Shown: positions 3,271 through 51,106 of the stretch, piece after piece
Layout: each line of letters begins with the position of its first letter
Numbering within the stretch: the first letter of the stretch is position 1
Assembly (NCBI GenBank): GCA_034926785.1
Contig: JAYFQU010000023.1
Location: 458 to 64,457, forward strand
Source: Christensenella sp.
GTDB lineage: Bacteria; Bacillota; Clostridia; Christensenellales; CAG-138
DNA length: 64,000 bases
Direction: 5' to 3'
Translations under genes and position numbers: made by a program
The notes under the pieces: generated by a model
What the model was told of the DNA's origin: nothing
Seen by the model: only the letters and a program-made list of their open reading frames with translations
Database searches by the model: none

Positions 3271-3305
3271 TCTATTTCTTTCTTGCAGCATGCCGCCGCA
3301 TTGTT

Positions 3306-3575
3306 TTATTTCACTTCCGCCTGGCCTCGTTTGGAAGTGAGGCGCGGTGCAATCTTCTGAATGAAAAACAGCTCCGCCGTATCCGGGGAAAGCGAGTAAT
3401 ATTCGCCGTCCAGCTGCACGCTGACCCCGGTTTGGCAGTGGTTCATGCAAAACGAGCCGCCAAGATGAATCTGTCCCTCCGCCGCATAATCCTGTATCAT
3501 TCGTCTGAGACGTTCAACCACCTCGCGCGATCCTTTCAGGTGACAGGAACTCCCGATGCACACCGTGATGTTCAT
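3306..3575 (-). CDS. Small thioredoxin-like [2Fe-2S] ferredoxin-domain protein
   Basis: MNITVCIGSSCHLKG...FCMNHC has four Cys in the CX4C...CX3C spacing. It is a paralog of the 84-aa ORF at 32874-33128. GGAG lies 8 nt upstream of ATG 3575; the track ORF starts at an upstream GTG. It is the first gene of the hydS operon. Confidence 0.75.
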   Translation of the reverse strand: MNITVCIGSSCHLKGSREVVERLRRMIQDYAAEGQIHLGGSFCMNHCQTGVSVQLDGEYYSLSPDTAELFFIQKIAPRLTSKRGQAEVK

Positions 3576-6126: not shown

Positions 6127-6494
6127 GGGTGTTACAAGCTCCCTCTTCGGCAGCCCGGTGTCGCGGGCACTGCGCTTTGCCGTCTGTTTGATCTTCGGTG
6201 AAAACATCGCGCGCAAGAATAGAAATTCATACTTGATCTACAAGTACATTTTTATGTGAAAAGAACGATGTGCAACACTTCGGTTTGCTGAAACAGTAGC
6301 TGCAATCAGCAGTAAACAATCCTCATTTTTATTGTATTCTCGATCTGTGCGCACGTCAATGCTTCAATCCGTGCATTTTTAAGCTGTTCTTAAGCGTATT
6401 CGATTCGTCTTTTGCCTCATTGTCCTCCACGTCTCTATTCTTATATGTACGTTCCTTTCTTGTATGTCCGATGGTAAGCGCAGAGAATGGCCAT

Positions 6495-10626: not shown

Positions 10627-10822
10627 GTCGTCTCCGTCCCCCTCCACAAAAACAAAATTGCGGCACGCGGCCGCCCGTTACAAAACAGCGGTTAACCCGA
10701 TTTAACATACCTGTTTCGGGGCAATACGAAACAAGTACGCGCCGTACAGCAATCTTGACTGTAGATCAAAACCACTGCACGGCGCGTTCGCTGATCCGGT
10801 TTTACGCGTCAGTCGTCAAAGA

Positions 10823-12529: not shown

Positions 12530-12948
12530 TACCATTTTCTCCTTCCATTTTGTATTGTATGCGTCCCAAAGATCGAACTTAGGGCCTTCGGTCCTATGAA
12601 CTATATACAATATATTTTATATAGAATAGCACCGCGCACAACCCAAGTCAATCATATATGTTAAATTGTTTCATCTGCCTTTTCGCGCAATGCTGCGGCG
12701 CTATTCGCCGACCCATCCGCGCCGCGAGACAAGGCGCAGGAACCTGCGGCCTGGCGAAAAAAAACCGGCGCAGACCTTTGATCTTTGTTTGGCCAATATT
12801 CGTCCGGATGCATTTTCTTTCGTTTTTAACGGCGTATTATTATTCACTAAAATCGCATATTAATACGCTCCGTTTTGGATTTCTTTTGATTTTCGGAGCT
12901 AATAGTGTATTTTCTACATAAATACCTTTCATAATTATAAATTTCTTA

Positions 12949-35473: not shown

Positions 35474-36043
35474 TTATCCGCCGATTTCCCGGATGAAATT
35501 TGTAACGACACCCAGAATTGCATCCTGGCGGATGAGTCCGATCCTGCTGTCGCGGCTGTCAATCGATTCCGCGCGGTTGTCGCCAAGCACAAACACCGTT
35601 CCCGCCGCAACCGTGATTTCCTGCATGCCGCTGTTGCCCAGCTGGTCCGGCAGAATAAAGGGTTCCTCCTCGAGTACATGGTTTCGAATCAGGCGCCCAT
35701 CCGCGCTGATCGATATGGTGTCTCCGGGCAGGCCAGCCACGCGCTTAACCACGCGGCCGTAGAGAGATCCGGCGTCGAAAATCACCAGATCGTTGAAGCG
35801 TAGCTTCGTAAACCCCGTATAGTAAACGCGATCTCCCGTCCGCAGGGTCGGTTCCATCGATCCGCCAACCACGGTATACTGGCGGATGCCAAGCAGCAGC
35901 ACGACGACGCCGAGCAGCAGGAGCACCAGCAACGAAAGAACCACGCGCGCGGTTTTACGTTTTTTATGCGCGGGGATGCTCTGCTCGTCCGGCCGGCCTT
36001 CCGTCCAATCAATGTCCCCGTCGCTGTGTGATGAGTATGGCAT
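35474..36043 (-). CDS. lepB: Signal peptidase I
   Basis: One TM segment, then VVGGSMEPTLRTGDRV (catalytic Ser box), NDLVIFD, VKRVAGLPGD, and GDNRAESIDSR. Confidence 0.9.
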   Translation of the reverse strand: MPYSSHSDGDIDWTEGRPDEQSIPAHKKRKTARVVLSLLVLLLLGVVVLLLGIRQYTVVGGSMEPTLRTGDRVYYTGFTKLRFNDLVIFDAGSLYGRVVKRVAGLPGDTISISADGRLIRNHVLEEEPFILPDQLGNSGMQEITVAAGTVFVLGDNRAESIDSRDSRIGLIRQDAILGVVTNFIREIGG

Positions 36044-37500
36044 GAAAACTGCCTTTCGTTCCGCCGGAAGCCGTGTTCACAATGCTTCCGAGCAAGATGA
36101 TCGCGCCCTTCCCGCGCCGCGGCTTGCCTCGCCTGAGCGTAACCGGGTCAGCCGCAACCGTTAACACTGCGGCAAATGCGCTTATTTTCTGTGACATTGT
36201 ATGATTTAAGGCACATTTTCAACGCCAATTTGCACATTTTTTCGCAGGATTGTCGCCCGCAATCGTTCGTTTAACGCCCGAATAAACACATTTTAACAGT
36301 TTATACTTCCGTATCCTGTTTCGCGTACGATTCAATCCGGCCTGCGGTCTTTTTGCCGAGAGCCGAAAGGCACGCCTTGCTCTGTTATCCCCAATTGTTC
36401 CTATTATACAATCGATGGCAACCGAAGTCCATATCTTTGCCTTTATCGCGGCGCTCAACAGCTTGCCCGCGCAGGAAACCATCTACCTCCGTCAATGTTT
36501 CTATGCGTAAAGCCAACGAACCAGGCCAAACGCATCGCAGTTGGGCGGCAGGTCTGCTCGGCAGGGGCTAAAATCGCACGGCAGGCGGGCAGTTGAGCGC
36601 GCAATCAGCCGCCCGTACGCCGCCCATTGTTCGCCGGTGCGCTAAATAATAGAAAGCGTCTCAACCGCTCCGGCCGTTGCTTTATCCTCGGCCAAGTCGA
36701 ATTTCTGCCAGATATACCCCTCCAAAATCTCGCATTTCTTACTCAAATCGGCGCGCCACAGAACGATGCGCCTGAACCTCGCTGTTGCAGTGTGTATTCA
36801 TGCCGTAAGTTACATTGTAATATTACCGTATAGTATGGCTGTATAATCACTTGACAGTAGTCCGTTTATTTGATAAGTTATGCCCTGTAGATGTTTGTAG
36901 AGTGCCGGAGTTTTTTTCATCGACGCATGGCGAACTTCCCGGAAAACTGTTAATATTTCATGAATTTTATCGGTTTTTTATGCAATCGATCTGCGTTTCG
37001 GTTACTATTGTTACAAGGTGTTTATGCAGGCAACACAGGCAATTTGGCCCGAACAGACCTATGACACGGCAGCTTAATATCACGCATAATGTTAAGTAGC
37101 CTCAGCCGAACTCCAGGCGGATCCACGGAACAGCCCGATTGCGTTTAAAACCGTCAAATTAAGTAACAATACGATGCCATGCAACCGGTTCATTTATACA
37201 GAAATCGAATGTTTTTGCTCCCACGGGTGGTATCTATGCATCGCAGAATGCCACAAAATGTTGGTATGAGTCTGGCCCGATGATCGTTGGTTTTGCGGTT
37301 TGGCTGCTTGTCTCCGCTATCCTTCGGAAGGATCGTCCGCACAAGCCCAACGGGTTAACACGTTTTTGCAGTATTTCGTTCAAAAAGACGTTTCCCCGAG
37401 ATACTGTCCGGTGTCTGCCCGCAGGGGGCGTGCGCTGTCATTGCTTCCCGTGATCGGCGCACTTTGATATCCATATATTGATGCGTTTCTTCCCATGTAT

Positions 37501-37580
37501 ATGGCACACCCGGCGAAAGCCGGGGTCGCAAAGCTAAAGGGCCTACCGGCACGCAATTGCCCATGGTAGCCAGCCGCCGA
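37501..37580 (+). promoter_or_regulatory. c-di-GMP-I (GEMM-I) riboswitch aptamer, by-eye match
   Basis: The sequence is AUGGCACACC-CGGC-GAAA-GCCG-GGGUCGCAAAGCUAAAGGGCCUACCGGCACGCAAUUGCCCAUGGUAGCCAGCCGCCGA. A GAAA-capped P2 is flanked by GCAnACC / GGGnCGC. The CGCAAAGC junction is present. The P3 arms are CCUACC / GGUAGCC, followed by an AGCCAGnnGCCGA tail as in known class I aptamers. Confidence 0.75.
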
Positions 37581-37647
37581 ATGAAGAACGCGCGTTTTCA
37601 TGCGTCAGGCATGTTATTTGGTTTATCGTCTATCCATCTATAAACGC

Positions 37648-37686
37648 AGCGGTTCAAATTCGCGGGAATTTCGAACTGCTTTTTTT
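37648..37686 (+). terminator. Rho-independent terminator acting as the expression platform upstream of the tad operon
   Basis: AGCGGTTCAAATTC-gcgg-GAATTT(c)GAACTGCT followed by a further run of six T (37681-37686), about 50 nt before the RBS AGGAGA and ATG 37738. Confidence 0.75.
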
Positions 37687-37737
37687 GTTCCCAAAAAGTA
37701 AACCTCTGGTGTTATTTTGAATTGAACAGGAGAACCC

Positions 37738-38370
37738 ATGATGCAAGTTTTACTGCCGGTGCTGTCTGGCGCTGCATTGGGCGCCGCGCTGGCGGTGCCC
37801 GTCCGGCTGATCTCGGCATTTTTGCTCCGGCAGCGCGGATTAGCCCCTGAGATGGAGCAAAACCATTTCGTGATACTCCTCGCGAGCCTTGTGCTCACCG
37901 GCGGCGCCATCGGGTGGCGCGCGGGATTTTCGTTTCACGGACTGTATCTTGTGTTCGTGATGGTGATCTCCGCCTGCGCGTTTTATATTGACGCAAAGCA
38001 CCGGGTCATTCCAAACGAGCTGGTGCTGGCGATCCTGCTTCTCACCGCGCTGTTTGGCTTTACGGGCGCAATCCCCTTTCGGATCTGGTCCTCTCTGCTG
38101 GGCTTTGCAGCGTGTTTTGTCATCTTTTTTCTGCCGAGTCTGTTTGGGAAAAACATCGGCGCGGGAGATGTCAAACTTGCGGCGGCAATGGGGTTTGCGC
38201 TCGGCTTAACGGGCAGCCTCTACGCGGTTGTCTGCATGGGACTTCTGGTGCTGGCATACGTGCTTCTTGACAAGCGCATGCCGCTGCCGCAGAGATTGAA
38301 GGAAATGATCCCTATGGGGCCGTTTCTTGCGCTGGCGCTGGTCGTCGTGCTATTGGTGCCTCAGGCATAG
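37738..38370 (+). CDS. tadV: Prepilin peptidase, A24 family (TadV/CpaA-like)
   Basis: Multi-TM protein with YIDAKHRVIPNELV and the catalytic GAGDVKLAAAMG box. It is the first gene after the riboswitch/terminator. Confidence 0.85.
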   Translation: MMQVLLPVLSGAALGAALAVPVRLISAFLLRQRGLAPEMEQNHFVILLASLVLTGGAIGWRAGFSFHGLYLVFVMVISACAFYIDAKHRVIPNELVLAILLLTALFGFTGAIPFRIWSSLLGFAACFVIFFLPSLFGKNIGAGDVKLAAAMGFALGLTGSLYAVVCMGLLVLAYVLLDKRMPLPQRLKEMIPMGPFLALALVVVLLVPQA

Positions 38371-38620
38371 GGTTTGCAACAGCTGTGCTAGAAAGACATG
38401 ATACGAGGATCTCTTTTTCAGGGTGGCGAGGTGAAAGTTGGGACTTTTCTCCCGTCCCAAAAAGGGAGAATGGATAGGGCATCGGATCCGGCCGCGTCTC
38501 AAGCGTGGCATCGTCTTCCGTTTTGCACGATGAAGCAAAGCGGCGAACTTGCTCTTAACGACATCAACGATGCGTTGATGATCGTCATTTGAGAATAAAA
38601 TAATAAGGAGAAACGACACT

Positions 38621-38779
38621 ATGAAGAACTTTCTGAAGAATGAAGCAGGTCAGGGCATGGTAGAATACGGCCTCATCATCGCGCTCGTCGCGGTCGTCGT
38701 CATCGTCGCAATCAAAGCCCTCGGCGGCAATGTTGCGAGCACCTTCAACTCCGTCGCCGGCAACCTCACCAACCCCTGA
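38621..38779 (+). CDS. flp: Flp-family type IVb/c pilin (52 aa)
   Basis: MKNFLKNEAGQG|MVEYGLIIALVAVVVIVAIKALGGNVASTFNSVAGNLTNP shows the Flp motif G/xxEYxLI plus a hydrophobic helix. AAGGAG RBS at 38606-38611. It is too short for the ORF track. Confidence 0.88.
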   Translation: MKNFLKNEAGQGMVEYGLIIALVAVVVIVAIKALGGNVASTFNSVAGNLTNP

Positions 38780-38817
38780 TAACTCCTGATTCAAAAACAG
38801 GAAAGGCAATCCAGACC

Positions 38818-38973
38818 ATGAAATGCTTCTGGGTCAACGAAGTCGGTCAGGGAGTCGTGGAATACGGCCTGATCATTGCGCTTGTCGCAACCGTGGTCAT
38901 CGTCGGTCTCAAGCTGGTTGGCGGTAGCACGAATTCGTTTTTCTCCGGTGTCAGCGAAGACTGGCCCTCGTGA
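38818..38973 (+). CDS. flp: Second Flp-family pilin (51 aa)
   Basis: MKCFWVNEVGQG|VVEYGLIIALVATVVIVGLKLVGGSTNSFFSGVSEDWPS. AGGAAAGG is upstream. It is too short for the ORF track. Confidence 0.82.
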   Translation: MKCFWVNEVGQGVVEYGLIIALVATVVIVGLKLVGGSTNSFFSGVSEDWPS

Positions 38974-39205
38974 TCAAAACGGGTTCGATCAACGGAGGAC
39001 TCGATAATCCCATGCTCGCGAAAACAATACAGCCTTAACGCATATTTGCGTTGGGTAATTGTGTTGTTGTCTGATGTTACGCAAATGCAGGGCGAATTTC
39101 ATGATTTGCGCGACTTTGCGCCCCAAAGCGATCCGGTAATTCTTGCCTGCCGCGCGCGATCGTTTATCCGCGTACGGCAAGCGGCCCATACCACAACAAA
39201 TGTTT

Positions 39206-39248
39206 CGGAATGAGAGCGACCGCTTGATAGTCGGGCGCTCTCATTCCG
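39206..39248 (+). other. Perfect 13-bp stem-loop in the flp-tadE intergenic region
   Basis: CGGAATGAGAGCG-n17-CGCTCTCATTCCG with no U-tract. It may be an mRNA processing or stability element separating pilin genes from machinery genes. Confidence 0.6.
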
Positions 39249-39414
39249 GCACTTGTGAGAACGTATGCGGCATTTCCGCCTCCGTCCCGGTTCTGGCAAC
39301 TCTGGAGACGTGTTTTTCGTCGGTATCTCTTCCGCCGCGAGGGAGTTCTTATCGCGGCCAAAGAAATACGGATGATCGTTGGGCGGGGACGCTGCGAAAA
39401 AAGAGGTGATCACC

Positions 39415-39831
39415 ATGAAACAAATGCTGTTACGTAAGCGACGCGAGGGCGGGCAATCCGTCGTTGAGTTCGCTCTGGCGCTGCCTCTCGTGTTGCTGCT
39501 CATCTGCGGCATGGTGGAGTTGGGTTGGCTCGCCTCCTCCCGGCAAGTTTTGGATACCATGACGCGGGAAGGCACTCGCGCGGGGATTGTCGCCGCAACC
39601 ACAACGGCCAGCAGGACGGCCGTCACCAACCGCGTTAACGCAGTAAAACCGGGCTACATGAAAAATACGGTGACCATAACGGTTACATTTTCCAACGCGG
39701 CGAGCTTTAAAGACGGCGATATCACCGTCGCCACCGCCTATGATCTGCCGCCGCTGACGCCGCTCACCGAATTTTTAACCCCGGACGGAACGTTTCATCT
39801 GCATTCAACTTATACGATGAAGATGGGCTAG
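39415..39831 (+). CDS. tadE: TadE/TadF-like pseudopilin
   Basis: MKQMLLRKRREGGQSVVEFALALPLVLLLICGMVELGW is the TadE-type N-terminus. AAGAGGTGA RBS. Start trimmed from 39379. Confidence 0.8.
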   Translation: MKQMLLRKRREGGQSVVEFALALPLVLLLICGMVELGWLASSRQVLDTMTREGTRAGIVAATTTASRTAVTNRVNAVKPGYMKNTVTITVTFSNAASFKDGDITVATAYDLPPLTPLTEFLTPDGTFHLHSTYTMKMG

Positions 39832-39999
39832 CGTCCTGGTATCCCCGCTGCGAACAGCTGCCCCGATGGAGGGCGTGGCCACCCGCAGTGGTTTACGCGT
39901 TCGCCGGTTTTATCCCCGGTCTATCTGTTTCCCACAGAATATCTCTTCTCAGCCGGGATCCAACACCTCCCGGCAGATCCGTTTCGGAGGTCTGAAAGA

Positions 40000-40794
40000 A
40001 TGAAGAAAATCGTCGTGTTCGCCCTGATCGCCGCCCTGTGCGCCGGCGTTTTGCTGTATTATTATCTCGGCAATCTCGAAGCGCAAAAGCAGGTTAAGGT
40101 AGAGTATGAGCAGGTGGTCGTCGCCGCGACGAATATCCCGGCATATACGCCAATCACCAATGAAATGGTGACGTTCAAGCAAATTCCGCAGGGGTTTGCG
40201 CATCCGCTGGCGGCCCACTCCGTAGAAGAAGTAGTCGGCTTTGTCACCGAAAGCGCGCTGATCGAAGGGGAACAAATCCTCCCGACAAAGCTAAAGCAGC
40301 TCGGTCAGACCGAAAGCGGGCTTTCTTACATCGTCCCGGAGGGCATGCGCGCGGTTACCGTTGCAGTGGATGAGGTGTCCGGTGTTGCCGGCTTTATTCA
40401 GCGCGGCGATTATGTGGACGTAATTTCCTATACCAGCACTTCCTACGACATGACCGCCGCCAAGCCGCAGCAGGATGAAGCGGCGACAGGCGAGCAGACG
40501 GCGGCAGCAGGCTCCAGCGGCGGTCCGTCTCAAGGGACAACGCTGATCGCAGCGCAAAACGTCTGCGTTGCGGCCGTCGGGACTTCACTCTCAAGTTCCG
40601 GTGCCGTCACGGAGGACGGTGGACCGGCCAGCTATACGAGTGTAACGCTGTTTTTATCGCCGGAAGACGCAATGCGCGTCATTCAAGGCTCCAGAAGCGG
40701 TTCTATCGTGCTGGTGATGCGCGCTTCGGGTGATCACACAGGCAACCTGCAGAATCCGATCGTCAACGATTCACTGCTGGAAAAGGCGGAATAG
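40000..40794 (+). CDS. cpaB: Flp pilus assembly protein CpaB/RcpC
   Basis: An N-terminal TM anchor, a SAF-like segment (VVVAATNIPAYTPITNEMV), and an RcpC-like C-terminus (GMRAVTVAVDEVSGVAGFIQRGDYVDV). Confidence 0.82.
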   Translation: MKKIVVFALIAALCAGVLLYYYLGNLEAQKQVKVEYEQVVVAATNIPAYTPITNEMVTFKQIPQGFAHPLAAHSVEEVVGFVTESALIEGEQILPTKLKQLGQTESGLSYIVPEGMRAVTVAVDEVSGVAGFIQRGDYVDVISYTSTSYDMTAAKPQQDEAATGEQTAAAGSSGGPSQGTTLIAAQNVCVAAVGTSLSSSGAVTEDGGPASYTSVTLFLSPEDAMRVIQGSRSGSIVLVMRASGDHTGNLQNPIVNDSLLEKAE

Positions 40795-40801
40795 CGAAAT
40801 C

Positions 40802-41941
40802 ATGGAAAAGAACTCAACCGGTATTCGCATCATGCTCGCGGCGTTCTCCGCCGATGACAGAAAACTGATCTCCAGTCTGCTCACGGATGAAGCGCTTCGC
40901 GTCACCAGTATGTTTCGCCCGGATAACGACGGGTTAAAAAAGGCATCCTCCCAACCGGCGGATGTCCTTTTGATTGGTACACGCGGCAAGCCGGAGCAAG
41001 AGTTGGACTTTGCGGAGCGGATGTTTACCGCGCGCAGCGATATCACCATCCTTCTGCTCTCCCCTGTGCTGGACAGCCGTATGCTTGCCCGCGCGATGGA
41101 GTGCGGAATCGCCCGCGTGATCGACATCGGCAGCGGCGAACACAATATCCGGACGCAGATCCTTGCCGCCGCAAATCGGGACCAGAACCGACGCAGCAGT
41201 ACACAGAAAATCGCGAGTTATGATTCCAAGATTGTTGCCTGTTACTCCCCGAAGGGCGGCGTTGGTAAAACGACGCTGGCGGTCAATCTCGCGTATGCGC
41301 TCACATCCCTGAATAAGAAAGTTGCGCTGATCGATTTAAGCCTTCAGTTTGGCGAGGTCGGCGTATATTTGGATATCCCCAAGGGGGATACCATCGCGGA
41401 TATGGTGGAGGAGCACTCGTTTGAACTCTCCACGGTCAAGAGTTATCTCATTCGCCATCAGAGCGGCATACAGGTGATGCTCTCCAGCAGTTCGCCGGAG
41501 TATGCCGAGCTGATTCGCCCGGAGCATATCGACGCAATCCTCTCCTCGCTGCGAACGGAGTTTGACTATATTCTGGTCGATATGGGCGTTTCCATCGGGG
41601 ACTGCGCCATTGCCGCACTGGAAACGGCGGATACGATCATGCTCGTTGTCACCGAGGACATCGCCGCTCTGCACGACGCAAAACGAAGCATTAAGGTTTT
41701 GGAGGCGCTCAACCAGCAGGATAAAATTAAACTTGTGGTCAATAAAGATGGGATCTCCACCATCAAGGTTAAGAACATTACCTCTCTATTGGAGATGACG
41801 CCGGCGCTGGTCATACCGTATGATTTAAAATCTGCGATGCTCGCCGTAAACCGCGGGATTCCGCTGCTCAACTGCGCGCCCAATTCCAAGGCGTCCAAAG
41901 AGATCTTTGCCTTTGCGCGCAGCATGATTCGGAGGGTATAA
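40802..41941 (+). CDS. tadZ: TadZ/CpaE: atypical receiver domain plus ParA/MinD-type ATPase
   Basis: A REC-like N-terminus (IRIMLAAFSADDRKL...ADVLLIGTRG) where Gly sits at the expected phospho-acceptor Asp. Deviant Walker A YSPKGGVGKTTLAVNLA. Start trimmed from 40730. Confidence 0.85.
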   Translation: MEKNSTGIRIMLAAFSADDRKLISSLLTDEALRVTSMFRPDNDGLKKASSQPADVLLIGTRGKPEQELDFAERMFTARSDITILLLSPVLDSRMLARAMECGIARVIDIGSGEHNIRTQILAAANRDQNRRSSTQKIASYDSKIVACYSPKGGVGKTTLAVNLAYALTSLNKKVALIDLSLQFGEVGVYLDIPKGDTIADMVEEHSFELSTVKSYLIRHQSGIQVMLSSSSPEYAELIRPEHIDAILSSLRTEFDYILVDMGVSIGDCAIAALETADTIMLVVTEDIAALHDAKRSIKVLEALNQQDKIKLVVNKDGISTIKVKNITSLLEMTPALVIPYDLKSAMLAVNRGIPLLNCAPNSKASKEIFAFARSMIRRV

Positions 41942-41943
41942 CC

Positions 41944-43254
41944 ATGGGGTTATTAGAACGGCTGGATAAAAAAACGCCGCTCACGCCAAACGGCGCAACC
42001 GTGCCGGTGGAGGCGGACGAACCTGCGCTGTTGCGCGAGCGCGTGCATTATCAAGTTGTTGAGACGCTGAACAAGCGCGATGAAAAGCACAGCGGGGGCG
42101 CAAATGAAGCGGAGACACGCGCAATTATCGATTCCGCATTGGAGCAGCAGGCCTCCAGCATGGCGCGGCCGGAGCGCATACGCATCGCCTCCGAAATCTA
42201 TGATTCTATCCGTGGTCTTGGGCCGTTGGAAAAGCTGCTTGCCGACGACTCCATCAGCGAAATCATGGTGAACGGAGCCAAGCAGGTGTTCATCGAACGC
42301 CGGGGCAAACTGATTCAGAGCGACGTCTCCTTCTATGATAACGATCAGTTGCTGAACGTAATTGACCGCATCGTCTCCCCGCTGGGGCGTCATATTGACG
42401 AGGCAAACCCGATGGTGGACGCGCGTCTGTCAGACGGTTCGCGCGTCAATGCGGTGATCCCCCCGCTTTCGTTAAAAGGGCCTCTGCTCACGATTCGAAA
42501 GTTTTCCAAAACGCCTCTGACCGTGGATAACCTGATCAGCTACGGCAGCCTCACCATGAAAATGGCCGCCTTTTTGGAGGCCTGCGTCAAGGGCCGGCTC
42601 AATATCGTCGTCTCCGGCGGAACGGGCAGCGGAAAAACAACGCTGCTCAACGTGCTCTCCGCCTATATTCCATATGACGAGCGCATCGTAACCATCGAGG
42701 ATGCCGCGGAAATCCAGCTGCAGCAGCGCCATGTTCTGACATTAGAGGCACGCCCGGCAAATCTCGAAGGAACCGGGCAGATCACCATACGCGATCTTGT
42801 GCGAAACGCGCTGCGTATGCGGCCGGACCGCATCATCGTTGGCGAGGTGCGCGGCGGTGAGGCGCTGGATATGTTGCAGGCCATGAATACCGGTCACGAC
42901 GGCTCCCTCACCACCGGACATGCGAACTCTACCAGGGATATGCTCGCGCGATTGGAGACTATGGTGCTTATGGCGGGCATGAATTTGCCGCTATCCGCCA
43001 TCCGCCAGCAGATTGCGTCCTCTATCGATATTATCGTGCAGCAATCCCGCATGCGGGACGGGAGCCGCAAGATCATCAGCGTCAGCGAGGTCGTCGGTAT
43101 GGAAGGCGACGTGATTATTACGCAGGAGATCTTTACCTTTGACGCGGGCGATGGACGCTCTCCCGGGCGTTTTCGCGCAACGGGCATCAAGCCCCGCTGT
43201 GCGGAGAAGCTCTTGGCCGCAGGCGCGGGCCTCAAGGATGAATGGTTTAACTAA
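41944..43254 (+). CDS. tadA: Tad secretion ATPase (CpaF/TadA)
   Basis: [14 protein letters not shown] (Walker A), [33 protein letters not shown] (Asp/His boxes of VirB11/PilB-like ATPases). Confidence 0.9.
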
Positions 43255-43296
43255 GAGAATGAACATGAGATTTTCTATGGAAAGGAAGCGCATCCT

Positions 43297-44226
43297 ATGA
43301 CTCGGATTCTGGTTGTCATCGTCTGCATGATTGCTTCCTATTTCATTTTTTACATCATTGCGACGGTGCGCACCAAGGAAAAGCGCGCGATGGATCAGCG
43401 CGTTCGCGCTCTGTTTGACGTTGTCCCGGAAGAGGGCGCTTCCAAACGCTTAAAAAAAGAAAGGCATAAGATTCATCCGCGCCGACTCGATCAGATTGCG
43501 GACGAGCTTTACGTCGCCGGCGTTGCGCTCCGCGCGGAAGAGTTTATCACGATCTGGATTCTGACCGGCGCCGTTATCCCTGCCGCCGTTTTGTTCCTCG
43601 GCGCGTCAACGAGTCTCTGCATCGGGCTTGTCATCATCGGCGGAGCGGCGCCCATCTCTTGGGTTACCATCAAGCGCAATAAACGCCTTACGTTGTTTGG
43701 AACACAGCTTTCCGACGCGCTGACGATCATCTGCAATGCGCTTCGGGTTGGGCAATCCTTTCAAACCGCGATGAAGAGCGTCGCCGACGAAATGGAGGAG
43801 CCGATCTCCCGCGAGTTCATGCGCGTCTATCGTGAAACGCAGTATGGCATGCCGCTCGAGACCAGCCTCGCCCGACTGGTCGCCCGAACCCAGAATTCCG
43901 ATCTCGATTTGGTTTGCTCCGCAGTCGTGATCCAGCGTCAGATCGGCGGCAATCTCGCTGTCATCCTCGAGAACATCTCCGATACCATCAACCAGCGCAT
44001 CCGTCTGCGCGGCGAAGTGAAAACCATGACTTCTGCCGGAAGGCTGAGCGGATATATCGTCGGCGCGTTGCCGGTCTTTATCATCGTACTGCTGATGTTT
44101 CTCAATCCCGGATATGTGGACATGTTTTTCTCCACACAATCCGGGCGGATCATGTTGATGGTTTGTGTCGTGATGGAGGCGATTGGATTCGCCTTTGTCC
44201 GGAAAATTGTCAACATCAAGATGTAG
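43297..44226 (+). CDS. tadB: Type II secretion system F-domain membrane protein TadB
   Basis: 309 aa with T2SSF-type topology and the motif LSDALTIICNALRVGQSFQTAM. Confidence 0.82.
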   Translation: MTRILVVIVCMIASYFIFYIIATVRTKEKRAMDQRVRALFDVVPEEGASKRLKKERHKIHPRRLDQIADELYVAGVALRAEEFITIWILTGAVIPAAVLFLGASTSLCIGLVIIGGAAPISWVTIKRNKRLTLFGTQLSDALTIICNALRVGQSFQTAMKSVADEMEEPISREFMRVYRETQYGMPLETSLARLVARTQNSDLDLVCSAVVIQRQIGGNLAVILENISDTINQRIRLRGEVKTMTSAGRLSGYIVGALPVFIIVLLMFLNPGYVDMFFSTQSGRIMLMVCVVMEAIGFAFVRKIVNIKM

Positions 44227-44241
44227 AAAGGAGCGCGCTGC

Positions 44242-45171
44242 ATGAGGCTTGTCGTCTTGGTTTGCACCATTGCGGTATTTCTTTCTCTGCTTGCACTATT
44301 GAGCGGCGTTGGAAAGCGAATCGATCTCATGCGCCGCCGCTTTGCTCAGGTTCAGGAAACCGAGCGCATATATAGCGATGATGAACTGAGAAAATCCTTT
44401 TCCGAACGCGTCATCCGCCCGGCGATGAACCAAATTGCCAATTTGGTTCGCCGAACGGCCGGGAAAAGAAAGGTCGCCGGTCCAAGCAAAGCCAACCAGA
44501 AACTCGAAAAACAGATCAAAGCTTCCGGCCTTCCGGTGACGATGCAGGAGTTCAACTTCATCAAAAGCACGCTGATGCTTCTGTTTCTCGTTGGCGGCAT
44601 TGTGATCTTCCTGCTCGCGCCCATTGATATCATGTATCGTTTGCTGATTTTGCTCGTCATGGCAAATATTCCGATGTATGGATCCGGCATCTTCCTCCGC
44701 TCCTGCGTGAAGGCGCGTAAGGAATCCATCTCGCACGATCTGCCGGACGTCATGGATGTTCTGGTTGTCAGCCTGGAGGCCGGTCTTGGACTGGATTCGG
44801 CGATTGTTCGGCAGTACGCCAAGAATAAGTCAATCGTACTCACCGAATTAAACAATGCCATTCGCGAGGTGCAGATGGGCGTTCCGCGCCGGACAGCGCT
44901 CAAAGAGATGGCAGACCGTTGCGACGTTAAGGAGATGACGGTATTTGTCACCGCGCTTTTACAGGCGGATCAGTTGGGCACATCGGTGAAAAATGTGCTG
45001 CAGGTACAGTCCGAGCGTCTTCGCGTAGAGCGAAAACAAGCCATACAGGCAAAGGCGGCAAAAGCACCGATCAAAATCATGCTGCCGACAGTCCTGTTCA
45101 TCTTCCCCGTGATATTCATCATTCTGCTCGGCCCGGCCGTTGTCGATATGATGGCAACGTTTGGTAAATGA
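44242..45171 (+). CDS. tadC: Type II secretion system F-domain membrane protein TadC
   Basis: 309 aa with LPDVMDVLVVSLEAGLGLDSAI and a C-terminal pair of TM segments. AAAGGAG RBS. Confidence 0.82.
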   Translation: MRLVVLVCTIAVFLSLLALLSGVGKRIDLMRRRFAQVQETERIYSDDELRKSFSERVIRPAMNQIANLVRRTAGKRKVAGPSKANQKLEKQIKASGLPVTMQEFNFIKSTLMLLFLVGGIVIFLLAPIDIMYRLLILLVMANIPMYGSGIFLRSCVKARKESISHDLPDVMDVLVVSLEAGLGLDSAIVRQYAKNKSIVLTELNNAIREVQMGVPRRTALKEMADRCDVKEMTVFVTALLQADQLGTSVKNVLQVQSERLRVERKQAIQAKAAKAPIKIMLPTVLFIFPVIFIILLGPAVVDMMATFGK

Positions 45172-45181
45172 GGTAACAAAC

Positions 45182-45526
45182 ATGAAGATACTCCAAATCC
45201 GAAAGAACGGAACAACAATCGCCAATGTGTGGCACGCAAACGGATATTTCACGCGGCTTCGTGGACTATTGGGCCGCACGCTGGATCGGGACGGCGGGCT
45301 GATGCTCTCGCCCTGCTCCAGCATCCATACGATCGGCATGCGATATGCCATTGACGCCGTCTATCTGGATCGGGGGTTTCGCGTGTTGCGGGTGGATCAG
45401 GCGATCCAACCCGGCAAGGTATGCAAAGCCCAGCATGGCGCGCGGCATATTCTCGAACTGCCGGAAGGAATGGCGTCATTAAGCAATATTTCATCTGGAG
45501 ATATTCTGGAGGTAACCCATGGATGA
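45182..45526 (+). CDS. DUF192-family small protein
   Basis: ...ANGYFTRLRGLLGR...LSPCSSIHTIGMRYAIDAVYLD...ILELPEG resembles the DUF192 (COG1430) pattern. Start trimmed to ATG 45182. The stop overlaps the next gene (ATGGATGA). Confidence 0.6.
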   Translation: MKILQIRKNGTTIANVWHANGYFTRLRGLLGRTLDRDGGLMLSPCSSIHTIGMRYAIDAVYLDRGFRVLRVDQAIQPGKVCKAQHGARHILELPEGMASLSNISSGDILEVTHG

Positions 45527-46430
45527 ACGATTAGACCGAAGCGAACGCGGAATTGACTCGCTGCGCAGCCGGATGGATGCGGACGCGCGTTTTCGCCGCG
45601 TAATATCCGGCTACGATCCGCAGGATGTCCGCTCATACGTTGAGAATGTTAAGCGGATTTTTTCGCAGCAGGCGATGGCGGCAAAGCAGGAGCAGGAGAC
45701 CTTGATTGCGCAGTTGGACTCAGCTAAAAGTGAGCTTCAGGCAAGGAACTGCGGAATTAAAAAGCTAAAGGAGCTATTGCTCGAGCGCGAAACGCAACTG
45801 ACCAACTCAAATATGCGGATTAACGCGCTGCTCCAGACCGTGAAAGCGCACGGCGCGGAGCGGGAAGAGTTGGAGCGGTTGCGCCAGGAGATTGCATCCA
45901 GCGGCAGCGCGGAGCGCCTTCAGGCGTTGGAGCGCGAAGCGCAGCGGCAGCGCGCCGCCGTTGCACAGGCGACAAGCCTTGTAGAAACGTGGAAGGAGGA
46001 GCGCGAACGCCTGCTTGCGGAAAATGAGCGCCTGCATCAGGAAGTGAGTTATCTGCGCTCCATCGCCATGTTCCCCATGCCGGAGCAGGAAGCGCCCCAT
46101 ATCTTTGCGTTCCCTGCCGCGCCAGGCGTTACAGCGGTGCCCGGCCGGCAGCAATATGCGGATGTCATCGCCGCCGAGAACCGGTTCGCAGCGCAGGCGG
46201 CCACGTCCCAGCCCGCAGCGTCCCAATCCGCCGGTTCGCAGCAGAAGGATTTTGCGCAGATTGCGGATAAACTCGCAACTATGTTCGCAGAAGCGTATCA
46301 ATTGGTCAGCCAGTTCAGAACTGCGCAGGAACCGCAGCCCGAGCCGCAGCAGCAGCGCCCCACCCAGCCATATATGCAGATTTTGCGTCCCGATGGCGGG
46401 AATGTGGACAACGTCTACAACAGAAAATAG
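45519..46430 (+). CDS. DivIVA-domain coiled-coil protein with a Gln/Pro/Ala-rich tail
   Basis: FRRVISGYDPQDVRSYVENV is a DivIVA-type N-terminal motif. It is followed by long heptad-like Glu/Leu/Arg/Gln-rich segments and a low-complexity QPAASQSAGSQQ...EPQPEPQQQRP tail. Confidence 0.65.
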   Translation: MDERLDRSERGIDSLRSRMDADARFRRVISGYDPQDVRSYVENVKRIFSQQAMAAKQEQETLIAQLDSAKSELQARNCGIKKLKELLLERETQLTNSNMRINALLQTVKAHGAEREELERLRQEIASSGSAERLQALEREAQRQRAAVAQATSLVETWKEERERLLAENERLHQEVSYLRSIAMFPMPEQEAPHIFAFPAAPGVTAVPGRQQYADVIAAENRFAAQAATSQPAASQSAGSQQKDFAQIADKLATMFAEAYQLVSQFRTAQEPQPEPQQQRPTQPYMQILRPDGGNVDNVYNRK

Positions 46431-46598
46431 ATGTGCGCAAGAGATGATAAAGCGGTCCACCATGCGTAGTCGGTCGGGTCACAGGCGGCCTTACCCCTGC
46501 GCATTTTAATTGTTACAGCACGCGATTCCCACCCGCTGTAGGCGGCGCATCCCCCGCGCGTTTCAAAAGGGTTGGCAGCGTTGAATAGTGAGGTTGAT

Positions 46599-48128
46599 AT
46601 GAAGCAAAAGGCAAGCACAACGGTTATCATGCGTCAGGATTCCCTCGCGCCGTTATTGGCGAAGGATGGGGCTCGCCCGGGGTGGAAATCCCGCCTGCCT
46701 CTACTCCTGCTGCTTTTTTTGCCGTGCCTCTTTTTGCGTGCTTCCCTGGATAACGATCTATGGTTTCTGCTCAACAGCGGGCGCTATGTACTCGCGCATG
46801 GAATTCCCGTCGTCGAGCCGTTTACCCTGCATCATAACATGGCTTTTCTGATGCAACAGTGGCTTGCCGCCGTCGTATTCTGGCTAATCTATTCCAGTCT
46901 GGGGGCCTATGGCGTGCTCGCGTTCATCTGCCTGCTGTTTCTCTGCATTGTTTGGGTTACCTACCGTTTGACGATGCTCCTCTCCCGTCAGAATTTTTTC
47001 GCTTCGTTTGTAACAACTCTGTTGATCGCCGTGCTGCTGACGCAGTTTTTCATCACGCGCCCGATCATTTTCACCCTGCTGATTCTGATCCTGGAACTCT
47101 ATTTTCTGGAGTGCTTTATCGCCTCGCACAAGGTCTCCTTTCTTTTCCCGCTGCCCATACTTTCGGCGCTGCTGATCAACTTTCAAGCCGCTATGTGGCC
47201 CATGCAGTTTATCCTGCTCCTGCCCTATGCGATTGATTCCTTTCACTTTAAGGTCGGGCGGATTCAAGGCCAGGGATATCCCAAACGGTTCTTTTTCCCT
47301 GCGGTTTTGCTGATGCTTGCCGCGGGGTTCGCTAACCCGTATGGATTTCGCGCGATGACCTATCTGTTTCGTTCCTATGGATACTCGGAGTTTTCACTGA
47401 TCGACGAAATGAAGCCCGCCAACATCAACACGTTTCTTGGATTGGTCACCTTTGGCACCATCCTTGCCGTGCTTGCGGTATATCTATTTCATAAGGATGC
47501 GAAAACGCGGCTTCGCTATGCGCTATTAACGTTCGGAACGGCGATACTGTCGCTTTCCGCCATGCGAAACTATGTCGTTTTCCTCCTTTGCGGCGTCTTC
47601 CCGCTGACATATGTGCTTCGGGATATAAAGCCGCCTGCGCTCGAAGCGAACCCCTCCAAATCCGTCAAACGCTTAAGGGTGGTTCTTCTCGTGTGTTTCA
47701 CGCTGGCTATGATCTGTCTTGCGAAAATACAGGTAAGCAGTATTCGGAAAGCCAACCTGCCCCCGCCCATTGCGGCGCCGGTAAACTTTCTGCTCGAAAC
47801 GGAGGATCCCGAAAACGTTATACTCTATACCGGTTATAATGACGGCGCGTATGCCGAATATATGGGGTTTGCTCCCTATATCGATGCCAGAGCAGAGGTG
47901 TTTGTCCCTAAAAACAATGGCCAGAGCGATATCATGAAAGAATATTGCCAGATGCTGCTTGGGAAAAAATACTACAAAGAGGTGCTGGATCAGTATCATT
48001 TTACCCACCTTCTGGTTTCCAAGGCGGATATCTTGAGCACGTATCTCCCCTATGATACGGATTATCATCTGGTCTATCAGGATGAGCAGTATTCGGTTTA
48101 CCGGTTGATCAATCCTTTGGCTTCATAG
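46599..48128 (+). CDS. Large polytopic membrane protein (~11-12 TM plus a ~130-aa soluble C-terminus), possibly GT-C-like
   Basis: After TM1 there is an acidic loop, RASLDNDLWFLLNSGRY. Many hydrophobic segments run up to about residue 380, followed by a hydrophilic C-terminal domain. GTGAGG RBS before ATG 46599; the track ORF begins at TTG 46572. The function is not recognisable by eye. Confidence 0.55.
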   Translation: MKQKASTTVIMRQDSLAPLLAKDGARPGWKSRLPLLLLLFLPCLFLRASLDNDLWFLLNSGRYVLAHGIPVVEPFTLHHNMAFLMQQWLAAVVFWLIYSSLGAYGVLAFICLLFLCIVWVTYRLTMLLSRQNFFASFVTTLLIAVLLTQFFITRPIIFTLLILILELYFLECFIASHKVSFLFPLPILSALLINFQAAMWPMQFILLLPYAIDSFHFKVGRIQGQGYPKRFFFPAVLLMLAAGFANPYGFRAMTYLFRSYGYSEFSLIDEMKPANINTFLGLVTFGTILAVLAVYLFHKDAKTRLRYALLTFGTAILSLSAMRNYVVFLLCGVFPLTYVLRDIKPPALEANPSKSVKRLRVVLLVCFTLAMICLAKIQVSSIRKANLPPPIAAPVNFLLETEDPENVILYTGYNDGAYAEYMGFAPYIDARAEVFVPKNNGQSDIMKEYCQMLLGKKYYKEVLDQYHFTHLLVSKADILSTYLPYDTDYHLVYQDEQYSVYRLINPLAS

Positions 48129-48395
48129 CCGGGTACTGGCGTAAAGATGTTGGATCGTTTATCTGAACTTCCTGATTCGGCTGATAAAACGCTTTTCGTC
48201 CGTCTATTTGGCAGGCAAAGGCAGGTTCCGTCCGGTTTATTACATTGTAACCGGTTGACTTTTTCGGTTGAATTACTATACTCATTGTTATATACAAAAT
48301 GAGTTTAACCCTTAATAGCTGCCGAGTAAGGCCGCTAACGTTCGTAGAGGGAAGTCCATGATCCATGAATGCGACGATTCGTCAGGAGGATGTAT

Positions 48396-49535
48396 ATGCG
48401 ATCCGTTTGGAAGTGGTTGAAGGGTGAGGGCGGTCAATCCACCATCATCATTGCTGTGTCCATGGTTGTGCTGTGTGGGTTTGCCGCGCTTGCAATCGAT
48501 GTAAGCAGGCTATCCGTAGAGCAGAACCAGTTGCAGAACGCCGCAGATGCGGCCGCTCTTGCCGGGGCGCGATCTCTGCCATCCTCCACAACCGCGAAAA
48601 GCCAGGCCATTCACTATGCCGGGGTCAATGGCGTCCCAGCCGCCAATACAACCGTTAATACCCCTTACAACAGCAATTCTTCCAAGATCGAGGTAATCTG
48701 TAAAGGGACGGTTCGCTACACATTTGCGCGCGTACTCGGTCTGCAATCCAAGCAGGTTTCCGCACGCGCAGTCGCAGAGAAACGGGGCTTGAGCGGCGGC
48801 GCGTTCGGCTACGCGGTCTTCTCCGGCAGCACCACGGATTTGATGCAGTTCAACTCCAGTTCTCTGGATATCTCCGGCAGCACACATTCAAATGCCGATT
48901 TTCAGATGAGCGGCACACTGCAAAAGATATCGGGCAATGCGGAGGCCGTGAAAAACTTCGCCTCTTATGTCTCCTCCATCACCATCGGCGGTACCTGTCA
49001 GGGGTCCTCTATCACCATTTCCGGCAGCACCATCAACGTGCCAAACCGCGTAACCAGCCCGGCAACCGTCATTGCGATGCCGGATTTTTCCGCGGATGTC
49101 AAGAGCGAGGCCGCCGCGGCAGGCACCTATTACACCTCATCCAAGCTCTATAACGGCGGTACGATTAACGTGGATTCCTCCATCTATGTGGACGGCGGAT
49201 CGCTCACCATCGCCGGAAGCAGTTTTTCCGGTCAAGGATGCATGGTGGCAACAGGCAATATCCAACTCAACGGCAGTCTGATTCGCTCTTCGTCCAGCTC
49301 CTCGGTCTGCCTCTACTCCAAAAATGGAGATATCCAATTCAATACCTCCGGCCTGCAGGTGGATGGTATCGTGTACGCGCCGAATGGGTTTATCCAGATC
49401 AACGCTTCTGACATCACCATCAATGGCCGTATAATCGCAAAAAAGGTTCAGATCAACGGCAGCAATGTGAAGATCACTTCGTCCACGGGAGATTTAGCCT
49501 GTCTGCCAGGCACGTCCGTGGTCCTCGTAGAGTAG
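48396..49535 (+). CDS. TadG-like protein (Tad_N pseudopilin-type N-terminus plus Ser/Gly/Thr/Asn-rich beta-solenoid-like body), copy 1
   Basis: WLKGEGGQSTIIIAVSMVVLCGFAALAIDVSRLSVEQNQLQNAADAAALAGA is the TadE/G-like N-terminal signature. AGGAGGA RBS. Start trimmed from 48369. Confidence 0.75.
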   Translation: MRSVWKWLKGEGGQSTIIIAVSMVVLCGFAALAIDVSRLSVEQNQLQNAADAAALAGARSLPSSTTAKSQAIHYAGVNGVPAANTTVNTPYNSNSSKIEVICKGTVRYTFARVLGLQSKQVSARAVAEKRGLSGGAFGYAVFSGSTTDLMQFNSSSLDISGSTHSNADFQMSGTLQKISGNAEAVKNFASYVSSITIGGTCQGSSITISGSTINVPNRVTSPATVIAMPDFSADVKSEAAAAGTYYTSSKLYNGGTINVDSSIYVDGGSLTIAGSSFSGQGCMVATGNIQLNGSLIRSSSSSSVCLYSKNGDIQFNTSGLQVDGIVYAPNGFIQINASDITINGRIIAKKVQINGSNVKITSSTGDLACLPGTSVVLVE

Positions 49536-49625
49536 TTTCCCCTAAAAGAGCATTCATGCTTTGTCACATGACTTGGGCAGTCCCTCTCATGATTCGGGCT
49601 TGACGCGATTGAATTCTACACAAAA

Positions 49626-49651
49626 GGCGTGAAAAGATTCACGCCTTTTTT
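49626..49651 (+). terminator. Rho-independent terminator after the first TadG-like gene
   Basis: GGCGTGAA-aaga-TTCACGCC followed by TTTTTTG. Confidence 0.75.
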
Positions 49652-49767: not shown

Positions 49768-49795
49768 TTGACTTTTACCGCTGAACTCATATACT
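49768..49795 (+). promoter_or_regulatory. Candidate promoter for the second TadG-like gene
   Basis: TTGACT (49768-49773), a 16-nt spacer, then TATACT (49790-49795), in an AT-rich stretch. Confidence 0.4.
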
Positions 49796-49914
49796 CATAT
49801 TTAGATGTCAGGTTGCAGCCCGTCATCATAGCGCAGATCTCTTCAAACAGATATAGAGTGTGCCTGCGAACAATTTACTTGAGATTGAGTGTTCATCCAC
49901 TCCGGAGGATTCGT

Positions 49915-51048
49915 ATGCGATCAATCAGAGCATGGCTAAAAGGGGAGTCGGGACAGTCTGCAATCATAGTCGCTATATCGATGGTTGTACTGTGTGGATT
50001 TGCCGCGCTTGCCATAGACATCGGTCGAATCTCGGTGACGAGGGGCCAACTGCAAAACGCGGCCGATGCTGCCGCGCTCGCAGGCGCGCAGGCGCTGCCA
50101 ACCGCCGCTGCCGCGCAATCCCAGGCGGTACTCTATGCGGGAATCAACGGCGTATCGGCCGCAAACACCACCGCCACAACCCCGTTCAGCGGAACCTCCT
50201 CAAAGATCGAGGTGGTTTGCCGGGGAACGGTGCCCTATACGTTCGCGCGGGTGTTTGGATTATCTGCCAAAGATATTTCCGCGCGCTCCGTTGCGCAGAA
50301 GCAAGGGATGAGCGGCGGCGCATTCGGATATGCCATTTTTTCCGGAAGTACGCTGGATCTCATGCAGATGAGTTCGCAGAATTTGACGATTGACGGCAGT
50401 GTACATTCCAATGCGGATATCCTGTTAACCGGTACCGTCAAGATCACCGGCAATGCGGAATCCGTCAAGAGTTTTTCCGCTTATGTTACCTCTATTATCG
50501 TCGGAGGAACTTGTCAGGGATCCTCCATCTCCGTGTCCGGAGGTTCCATCAATGTACCAACCCGCATCTCCAGCCCGGCGGTAACCATCGCGATGCCGGA
50601 TTTTTCTACCGAATTGAAAGAGGATGCTTCGGCAGGGGGCAGCTATTTTACCACTTCAAAAACATATAGCGCCGGAATCATCAGTTTGGATTCCCCGATC
50701 TATGTGGACGGCGGTTCGCTCACCTTAAACGGCAACAGCTTCACCGGTCAGGGGTGCATGGTCGCGACGGGTAATATTCAGGTGAACGGAAATTTGACCC
50801 GTTCAGGCTCCAGCTCCTCCATCTGCCTGTATTCGAAAACCGGGGATATCCAAATCAACACTTCGGTTTCACGAATCGATGGCAGCCTCTATGCGCCAAA
50901 CGGAATCATACAGATCAACGGAAATGTCACGATCAATGGAAGAATTATCGCCAAGAAGGTTCAAATCAACGGCAGCACGGTCAATATCATCTCCTCTTCA
51001 GGCGATCTGGCATGCCTCCCCGGAACCTCCGTCAGCCTGGTTGAATAG
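49915..51048 (+). CDS. TadG-like protein, copy 2 (tandem paralog)
   Basis: MRSIRAWLKGESGQSAIIVAISMVVLCGFAALAIDIGRISVTRGQLQNAADAAALAGA. It is colinear with copy 1 over its full length (roughly two-thirds identical by eye), including the shared C-terminus INGRIIAKKVQINGS...GDLACLPGTSV.LVE. CGGAGGA RBS. Start trimmed from 49768. Confidence 0.75.
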   Translation: MRSIRAWLKGESGQSAIIVAISMVVLCGFAALAIDIGRISVTRGQLQNAADAAALAGAQALPTAAAAQSQAVLYAGINGVSAANTTATTPFSGTSSKIEVVCRGTVPYTFARVFGLSAKDISARSVAQKQGMSGGAFGYAIFSGSTLDLMQMSSQNLTIDGSVHSNADILLTGTVKITGNAESVKSFSAYVTSIIVGGTCQGSSISVSGGSINVPTRISSPAVTIAMPDFSTELKEDASAGGSYFTTSKTYSAGIISLDSPIYVDGGSLTLNGNSFTGQGCMVATGNIQVNGNLTRSGSSSSICLYSKTGDIQINTSVSRIDGSLYAPNGIIQINGNVTINGRIIAKKVQINGSTVNIISSSGDLACLPGTSVSLVE

Positions 51049-51076: not shown

Positions 51077-51106
51077 CGCACGACCGATTTCTCGTGCGCT
51101 TTTTTC
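51077..51106. terminator. Bidirectional terminator between tadG-like copy 2 and prsW
   Basis: CGCACGA-n8-TCGTGCG is flanked by AAAAAAG upstream and CTTTTTTC downstream. Confidence 0.65.

Follow-up and report, generated by a model that had tools for sequence, protein, structure and literature searches.

Does cyclic di-GMP (c-di-GMP) control the Tad/Flp (type IVc) pilus of a Gram-positive bacterium through a riboswitch in the pilus leader, and if so, are the pilus genes turned on or off by the ligand? The question is raised by a 64,000-nucleotide stretch of a Christensenella sp. contig (JAYFQU010000023.1, positions 458 to 64,457; the whole stretch is referred to as the window, and coordinates are counted from its first letter), in which a class I c-di-GMP (GEMM-I) aptamer and an intrinsic terminator stand before a prepilin peptidase gene and the tad cluster that it begins. 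Regulation of Tad pili in Gram-positive bacteria is, to our knowledge, almost unstudied, and the locus offers a concrete, testable cis-regulatory mechanism for it. Based on the evidence obtained here, the leader is understood as probably, if by no means certainly, a class I c-di-GMP riboswitch that works by transcription attenuation, with the predicted logic of an OFF switch resembling Cd1 of Clostridioides difficile.

The identity of the aptamer is considered first. A preliminary description of the window had called a GEMM-I element here; the sequence it quoted is present as given, and the call is borne out by Infernal with Rfam, in which RF01051 (c-di-GMP-I/GEMM-I) matches 37493-37581 of the forward strand over the full length of the model (1-87) at 70.4 bits, far above the gathering score of 35 (E = 8.8e-12). 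This is the sole match of the whole 64-kb window to Rfam 15 at gathering thresholds, and a permissive Rfam scan of 35900-39500 at E <= 1 returned nothing besides RF01051. A match to a GEMM-like core pattern at 23350 (reverse strand) lacked Rfam support and was rejected. Model alignment puts the GAAA tetraloop of P2 at 37515-37518. The ligand-contact bases, located by the covariance-model alignment and by alignment A2, are canonical in Vc2 numbering: G20 is 37503, the unpaired G preceding a GC pair; A47 is 37530, the first A of CGCAAAGC; and C92 is 37577, the first C of CCGAA. G20 and C92 recognise the two guanines of c-di-GMP, while A20 marks variants that bind cyclic GMP-AMP (cGAMP) or are bispecific (PMC6140456), an association of A20 also made elsewhere (PMC9481103). 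The window aptamer, which has G at position 37503 and C at position 37577, thus carries the c-di-GMP-selective combination.

In an alignment of 23 aptamers, P2 and P3 were both recovered by RNAalifold, with compensatory double changes in 10 of 16 pairs. P3 of the window (CCUACC...CAUGG; CCUAAR...YAUGG or ACGG in relatives) is receptor-like by sequence resemblance only, the canonical 11-nt tetraloop receptor being CCUAAG...UAUGG. In the minimum free energy (MFE) structure of the full leader, the P1 5' strand UUCUUC (37487-37492) pairs with GAAGAA (37583-37588); the sequence of the former is identical across all orthologous leaders, its 3' partner having been fixed by the pattern used to find them. 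Judged by RF01051 and by covariation, the element is a genuine class I c-di-GMP aptamer, presumably with the ligand binding of its class. One might suppose a decayed or non-functional aptamer beside a constitutive leader terminator, given that the overall leader folding energy is ordinary (z = -1.34), and the case is therefore made by the covariance model and the comparison with relatives. Both render decay extremely improbable: the score is twice the gathering threshold, the contact bases are all intact, and the element has been conserved with compensatory changes while the spacers diverged completely.

The hairpin and T run noted earlier at 37648-37680 fold as proposed into an intrinsic terminator (37648-37686, forward strand), consisting of a 14-bp stem (37648-61/37666-80) with a single bulged C (C37672), a GCGG loop and a U7 tract (37680-86). 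The hairpin lies 67 nt beyond the aptamer end and begins 58 nt past the P1 3' strand; another 52 nt separate the U tract from the ATG at 37738, before which a ribosome-binding site (AGGAGA) occupies 37728-37733. These distances agree with the previous estimates of about 65 and 50 nt. A simple terminator scanner did not pick up the 37648 hairpin, the bulge being the probable reason, and flagged only a spacer hairpin at 37599-37613 (CAUGC/GCAUG, then the U-rich UUAUUUGGUUU; forward strand). As a terminator the spacer hairpin was rejected, as orthologs keep no U tract after theirs. Aptamer and terminator share no nucleotides, so they can coexist, and the MFE structure of the full leader indeed holds P1, P2, P3 and terminator together.

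How, then, could occupancy of the aptamer decide the fate of a terminator it does not touch? Folding predicts a mutually exclusive third structure, an antiterminator whose 5' strand (37574-37597, forward strand) comprises CCGC with C92, GAAU, GAAC from the P1 3' strand, GC and GCGUUU, and whose 3' strand (37642-37665, forward strand) overlaps the terminator 5' arm and loop. Its pair list, taken from folding, amounts to 20 bp (CCGC/GCGG, GAAU/AUUC, GAAC/GUUC, GC/GC and GCGUUU/AAACGC). On one side the helix takes up C92 together with some of the P1 3' strand, on the other 14 nt of the terminator 5' arm and loop, and it encloses the spacer hairpin. The competition between part of the P1 3' strand and the terminator 5' arm, for which the preliminary description had proposed a folding check, is accordingly found, by way of the predicted antiterminator. 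The aptamer tail GAAUGAAGAAC resembles the terminator 3' arm GAAUUUCGAAC, a likeness that is just what a direct antiterminator requires.

Snapshots of the growing transcript give the predicted order of events. Until about 37655 the aptamer with P1 folds best; the crossover falls between 37658 and 37662, and the antiterminator is the MFE structure of transcripts ending at 37662-37672; at 37680, where the terminator 3' arm has become available, the minimum returns to aptamer plus terminator. As long as the 3' arm is unavailable, the antiterminator (-60.7 kcal/mol) is preferred to the P1-closed fold (-56.8 kcal/mol) by an advantage estimated at 3.9-5.1 kcal/mol, a gap that ligand binding could plausibly overcome. 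The ensemble computed under the same restriction contains 13.4 expected pairs between tail and arm and 0.0 of the 6 P1 pairs. Shuffling of the arm gave a mean of 2.3 tail:arm pairs, and none of 40 shuffles attained the observed 14.

A precedent for such a design exists in Cd1, whose aptamer and terminator can be present together and whose antiterminator is transient, arising about 47-60 nt beyond the completed aptamer and later relaxing to the terminator, with OFF logic as the result (PMC9262584). In C. difficile, every class I c-di-GMP riboswitch is described as an OFF switch (PMC11477304). From an antiterminator of the Cd1 type it follows that c-di-GMP should cause termination. Applied to the window, the mechanism would have transcription start just before 37487. 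In the c-di-GMP-bound state, P1 (37487-92/37583-88) and the junction including C92 (37577) would be locked within the aptamer, 37648-37665 would stay free, the 14-bp terminator would form, and RNA polymerase would halt at U37680-86, ahead of the prepilin peptidase gene. Without ligand, 37574-37597 would pair with 37642-37665 as soon as the latter is transcribed, and the 20-bp antiterminator, occupying the terminator 5' arm, would permit read-through into cpaA, flp and the tad genes. The choice between ON and OFF, which the preliminary description had left undecided, is hence most likely OFF by prediction; for the direction of the switch in vivo, it is this folding model from which we infer it. 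As a side observation, the U-rich UUAUUUGGUUUAU after the spacer hairpin lies inside the antiterminator loop, and this U-rich tail is not conserved in orthologs. Hairpin and tail might, speculatively, serve as a pause element that lengthens the window of time for ligand binding, by analogy to the pausing in Cd1.

Relatives of the locus were examined in two ways. Firstly, 80 loci anchored on CpaF homologues were fetched across bacteria and an aptamer was sought within 10 kb. Rfam and our own covariance model placed one there in only five of them, all Firmicutes (L001-L004 and L012), always 5' of the Tad genes and on the same strand; two aptamers occur in L002, two in L003 and three in L012. Secondly, a metagenome scan with a pattern from the aptamer 3' edge gave 50 stretches, 18 of which were non-redundant, true orthologous leaders. 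Together with 2 from genomes they make up an ortholog set of 20 leaders (21 including the window), whose sequences are phylogenetically related and in which the search pattern fixed GAAUGAAGAAC. The order of aptamer, spacer and terminator is preserved in all 20, with the same peptidase gene behind: a homologue of 206-210 amino acids follows every leader, and those from metagenomes sit 115-210 nt 5' of it. The terminator is likewise present in 20 of 20, its stems ranging from -14 to -26 kcal/mol and followed by a U tract. It starts 50-100 nt after the aptamer and shares no nucleotides with it in any of 26 instances. The spacer hairpin keeps its position in the orthologs, its sequence being unrelated between clades.

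When the P1 5' strand is blocked, tail:arm pairs number 6-16 in 14 of the 21 leaders, compared to shuffle means of 1-5. Additional support comes from outside the ortholog set, in five independent aptamers of four Firmicute Tad loci (L002a, L003a, L003b, L004 and L012b) that carry their own, differing tails and terminators. Each of them shows 8-13 tail:arm pairs in the unconstrained MFE structure, where shuffles average 1.8-4.9. The terminators themselves appear to bear a trace of the competing helix. Their 5' arm motif CGGUUC does not vary in any of the 20 leaders, whereas its 3' partner occurs in four variants (GAACUG, GAGCCG, GGACCG and GAACCG) that differ only by way of G.U wobbles; the U residues of the 5' arm are never C, even though C would strengthen the terminator in 15 leaders. 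This pattern suggests that the 5' arm is constrained a second time, by having to pair with the As of GAAC or CCGAA in the tail. The linker helix of the antiterminator shifts its register between clades, and because of this no single column-wise alignment of the antiterminator was obtained.

Several points weigh against the Cd1-like OFF switch and account for the caution with which it is proposed. By MFE, tail:arm pairing is absent from 7 of the 21 leaders (L001, L082, L083, L101, L108, L122 and L125), which amount to the L001 clade together with L101 and L108. A looser count, of pairs between any aptamer nucleotide and the arm, gives 7-12 pairs in shuffles and does not separate real from shuffled arms; it was dropped in favour of the tail-specific count. 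Covariation on the tail strand is not visible, because the ortholog pattern fixed that strand. The logic is derived from nearest-neighbour folding, a poor model of the non-canonical GEMM-I core, and aptamer plus terminator is the global minimum at full length, so that read-through depends on kinetics. Finally, repression of an adhesion pilus by c-di-GMP would be contrary to the usual expectation as well as to the example of C. difficile, where type IVa pili are under ON control.

The alternative is the opposite logic, in which c-di-GMP bound to the same riboswitch would prevent termination and induce the Tad pilus. As a rule c-di-GMP promotes adhesion, and ON control agrees with that role. ON logic was proposed in 2007 for 78 of 322 GEMM instances, those with a terminator overlapping the 3' hairpin (PMC1950547), and two switches on pilus genes, GEMM-Ib at pilM and class II at pilA1, are ON; the seven leaders lacking a clear antiterminator by MFE would also be accommodated. 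Yet the terminators of the present family begin 50-100 nt past the aptamer with no overlap, and a bound aptamer therefore cannot block them directly. For a relay through an anti-antiterminator, the spacer would have to contain a complement of the terminator 5' arm, and the spacers are unrelated between clades; the tail, moreover, mimics the 3' arm of the terminator and not its 5' arm. We consider ON control unlikely and retain the Cd1-like OFF switch as the preferred interpretation.

The origin of the transcript and the extent of the control are considered together. A block conserved upstream of the aptamer (37464-37479, forward strand; TTGATA at 37464-69 and TATATT at 37474-79) corresponds to a motif CCTTGAWA-N4/5-TRTATAT placed 8-25 nt 5' of P1 in most orthologous leaders, and it is probably the promoter, which would have transcription start just before P1. 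A textbook sigma-70 reading as -35 and -10 elements does not fit, the spacing between TTGATA and TATATT being only 4 nt. Farther upstream, about 1.4 kb (36044-37460) contain only short open reading frames (ORFs), five of which were scanned and gave no Pfam match; a divergent signal peptidase gene and a CHAP/NlpC gene lie 5' of this stretch. Because relatives have tandems, it was also searched for a second, degenerate aptamer, and none was found at E <= 1 with Rfam or at E <= 0.1 with our own model.

At the other end, the preliminary description had the switch gate an entire operon of 13 genes. Thirteen genes are counted up to a strong terminator-like hairpin (12 bp and a T run) at 49622-49649, between two TadG-like paralogues, and a 14th lies beyond it; a further terminator at 51077-51098 stands behind this last gene (49768-51048), which may be a separate transcription unit. 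What holds of the earlier proposal is the position of switch and terminator before the cluster. Gating of the whole operon is an inference from it: the hairpin at 49622-49649 lies within the cluster, and the flp genes are bordered by non-coding gaps of 250 nt (38371-38620) and 405 nt (38974-39378). Internal promoters in these gaps could free most of the operon from the switch, which again speaks against the full reach of the proposed control. In that event the riboswitch would mainly control the prepilin peptidase directly, with flp and tad genes transcribed from their own promoter or promoters. The gaps themselves, a sigma-70-like match at 38575-38604, a weak hairpin at 39034-39055 and the aptamers of L012, which are placed directly before flp-like genes instead of the peptidase gene, are in keeping with such an arrangement. 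All genes, on the other hand, are co-oriented and mostly tightly spaced over 39379-49535, and the promoter-like matches exceed the shuffled expectation by only about two standard deviations (16 vs 9.7 +/- 3.6). Peptidase-limited control is thus regarded as doubtful, though it deserves more credit than the other alternatives. Even then pilus assembly would still be gated, because Tad systems require prepilin processing.

The genes behind the leader, all on the forward strand, confirm by Pfam that a Tad/Flp locus follows directly. The CpaA/TadV-type prepilin peptidase (37738-38370, 210 amino acids) has PF01478 (Peptidase_A24, E = 5.9e-15) as its sole reported Pfam domain. Two Flp pilin genes come next (38621-38779 and 38818-38973; Flp_Fap, PF04964, E = 3.5e-11 and 6.7e-8), with a G/xxxxEY-type processing motif visible in their translations; the ORF at 38398-38592 was rejected as a third pilin, having no Pfam match and a sequence that is not pilin-like. 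Pfam further identifies TadE (39379-39831), RcpC/CpaB (40000-40794), a TadZ-like ParA ATPase (40730-41941; AAA_31/ParA), the CpaF/TadA ATPase (41944-43254; T2SSE, E = 3.9e-67), the platform proteins TadB and TadC (two T2SSF proteins within 39379-49535), a DUF192 gene (45161-45526) and a first TadG-like gene (within 39379-49535; Tad domain, PF13400), TadE and the TadG-like proteins standing for the minor pilins. Two ORFs of 303 and 518 amino acids (45519-46430 and 46572-48128) are without significant Pfam match, and the second TadG-like gene (49768-51048) matches Tad (PF13400)/DUF7305. A Secretin domain (RcpA/CpaC), a component that diderm systems require, is absent from the scanned cluster ORFs by Pfam, which is expected for a monoderm host and no argument against Tad membership (PMC6916266). 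The RcpC/CpaB homologue stands out in a secretin-less, apparently monoderm locus, as a review has RcpC missing from monoderm models. The closest CpaF homologues are found in metagenome-assembled genomes of uncultured Firmicutes (HGW-Firmicutes-9, 86% identity; Clostridiaceae CA_7, 74%).

A putative source of the ligand is encoded in the window itself, in the form of a GGDEF diguanylate cyclase with a periplasmic-binding-protein-like sensor domain (3814-6237, reverse strand; E = 5e-33), which we count in favour of the c-di-GMP-responsive OFF switch. The gene adjoining it (1591-3513, reverse strand) codes for an [FeFe]-hydrogenase-like protein with Fe-S and PAS domains that resembles a sensory hydrogenase; an 'EAL' motif in it was rejected, the protein being of this Fe-hydrogenase-like PAS type. 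An 'HD-GYP' motif at 10706-12664 was likewise rejected for want of Pfam support.

Is c-di-GMP the only signal read by leaders of this family? The G20 column holds G in 11 and A in 12 of 23 related aptamers, and even close orthologs of the window leader differ in it (L085, L101-L105, L108, L116 and L121 being the orthologs cited for this variation). The variation in close orthologs might lead one to suppose that the window aptamer, too, senses 3',3'-cGAMP or both dinucleotides in the manner of GEMM-Ib. Its own bases, G37503 and C37577, are the c-di-GMP-selective pair, and we hold such a specificity to be very unlikely. In relatives with several aptamers both bases are mixed within one leader. 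L002 (5280-5373 and 5518-5604) has G in its first aptamer and A in its second, as does L003 (4253-4337 and 4452-4536), whereas the triple of L012 (4723-4808, 4834-4919 and 5374-5461; all in alignment A2) has A in the first two and G in the third. L002 and L003 possess a second aptamer upstream, and the window is without one. By sequence, the Tad leader of some sister lineages may receive input from a second dinucleotide. Tandems of c-di-GMP-I aptamers are in themselves common: 347 doublets and 12 triplets have been reported (PMC9481103). In L012 (Syntrophomonadaceae), the third aptamer (5374-5461) stands directly before a Flp pilin gene (5550-5696) with no terminator within 200 nt, and this copy may act on translation, unlike the terminator-based ones. 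A wider proposition, that Tad pili in a clade of uncultured, Clostridia-like Firmicutes are a low-c-di-GMP trait to which A20 copies, if they bind cGAMP, add a serial NOR-like OFF control, is put forward as rather unlikely in its entirety; were the A20 copies indeed to bind cGAMP, expression of the Tad pilus would answer to two cyclic dinucleotides together, a combination absent from the 2022 tandem-riboswitch survey.

The importance of the locus lies in what the predicted direction would mean. If the OFF logic is true, c-di-GMP represses a pilus usually linked to adhesion; this would parallel the class I control of C. difficile flagella and would suggest that the pilus belongs to an exploratory, low-c-di-GMP state. 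The modest surprise is in that direction: the type IVa pili of C. difficile are turned on through their class II riboswitch, whereas c-di-GMP would here repress the Tad pilus. The roughly 25 leaders of the family, some with G and others with A in the specificity position, and with one, two or three aptamers, constitute a natural series for ligand specificity and the tuning of dose-response. With regard to annotation, the case is an ordinary one, a well-known riboswitch class where a survey of 2007 had already placed it.

That survey provides the nearest precedent for the gene association. Weinberg et al. name cpaA, which encodes the Flp prepilin peptidase, as one of the gene families preceded by GEMM more than once (PMC1950547, Table 2). 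Pairing and 5' regulatory position are the same as in the window, the 2007 entry being a list entry only, without organism, expression platform or logic, and we came across no later work on it. The occurrence of a class I aptamer on a Tad machine, which the preliminary description had singled out as deserving verification, is real and at the same time less new than implied. Full-text searches turned up neither experiments on a c-di-GMP riboswitch at a Tad/Flp locus nor a detailed bioinformatic account of one; the 'CpaA' of a 2020 review is a cation antiporter and irrelevant here.

Several characterised riboswitches can be set beside the window leader. Vc2 of Vibrio cholerae (3IRW, 3MXH) has in common with it a first hairpin capped by a GAAA tetraloop, the junction CGCAAAGC and the G20/A47/C92 contacts, but comes from a Gram-negative source with another gene context and is described as translational, with P1 as the switching element (PMC9262584). 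The GEMM-Ib riboswitch of Geobacter pilM, responsive to 3',3'-cGAMP, shares with the window leader a GEMM-I-type aptamer before pilus assembly genes and an action on transcription. It differs in having A20, in binding cGAMP, in a terminator that overlaps the aptamer and in ON logic (PMC9262584), and it controls the type IVa pilMNOPQ genes of a proteobacterium. The class II riboswitch Cdi2_4 before pilA1 of C. difficile also places a type IV pilus cluster of Clostridia under c-di-GMP (PMC11477304), with an unrelated aptamer class (RF01786), ON logic and a type IVa system in place of Tad (type IVc). The closest analogy is to Cd1 (Cdi1_3) before flgB of C. difficile. Cd1 is validated experimentally, whereas the window switch is known from sequence and predicted folding; Cd1 governs flagellar genes where a Tad/Flp type IVc pilus is concerned here, and the sequences of the two expression platforms are unrelated. 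Common to both are the aptamer class, the Firmicute host and a terminator separate from the aptamer (PMC9262584), and, for the window by prediction, a transient antiterminator built from the aptamer 3' strand and the terminator 5' strand, a delay of about 50-75 nt between aptamer and decision, and OFF logic.

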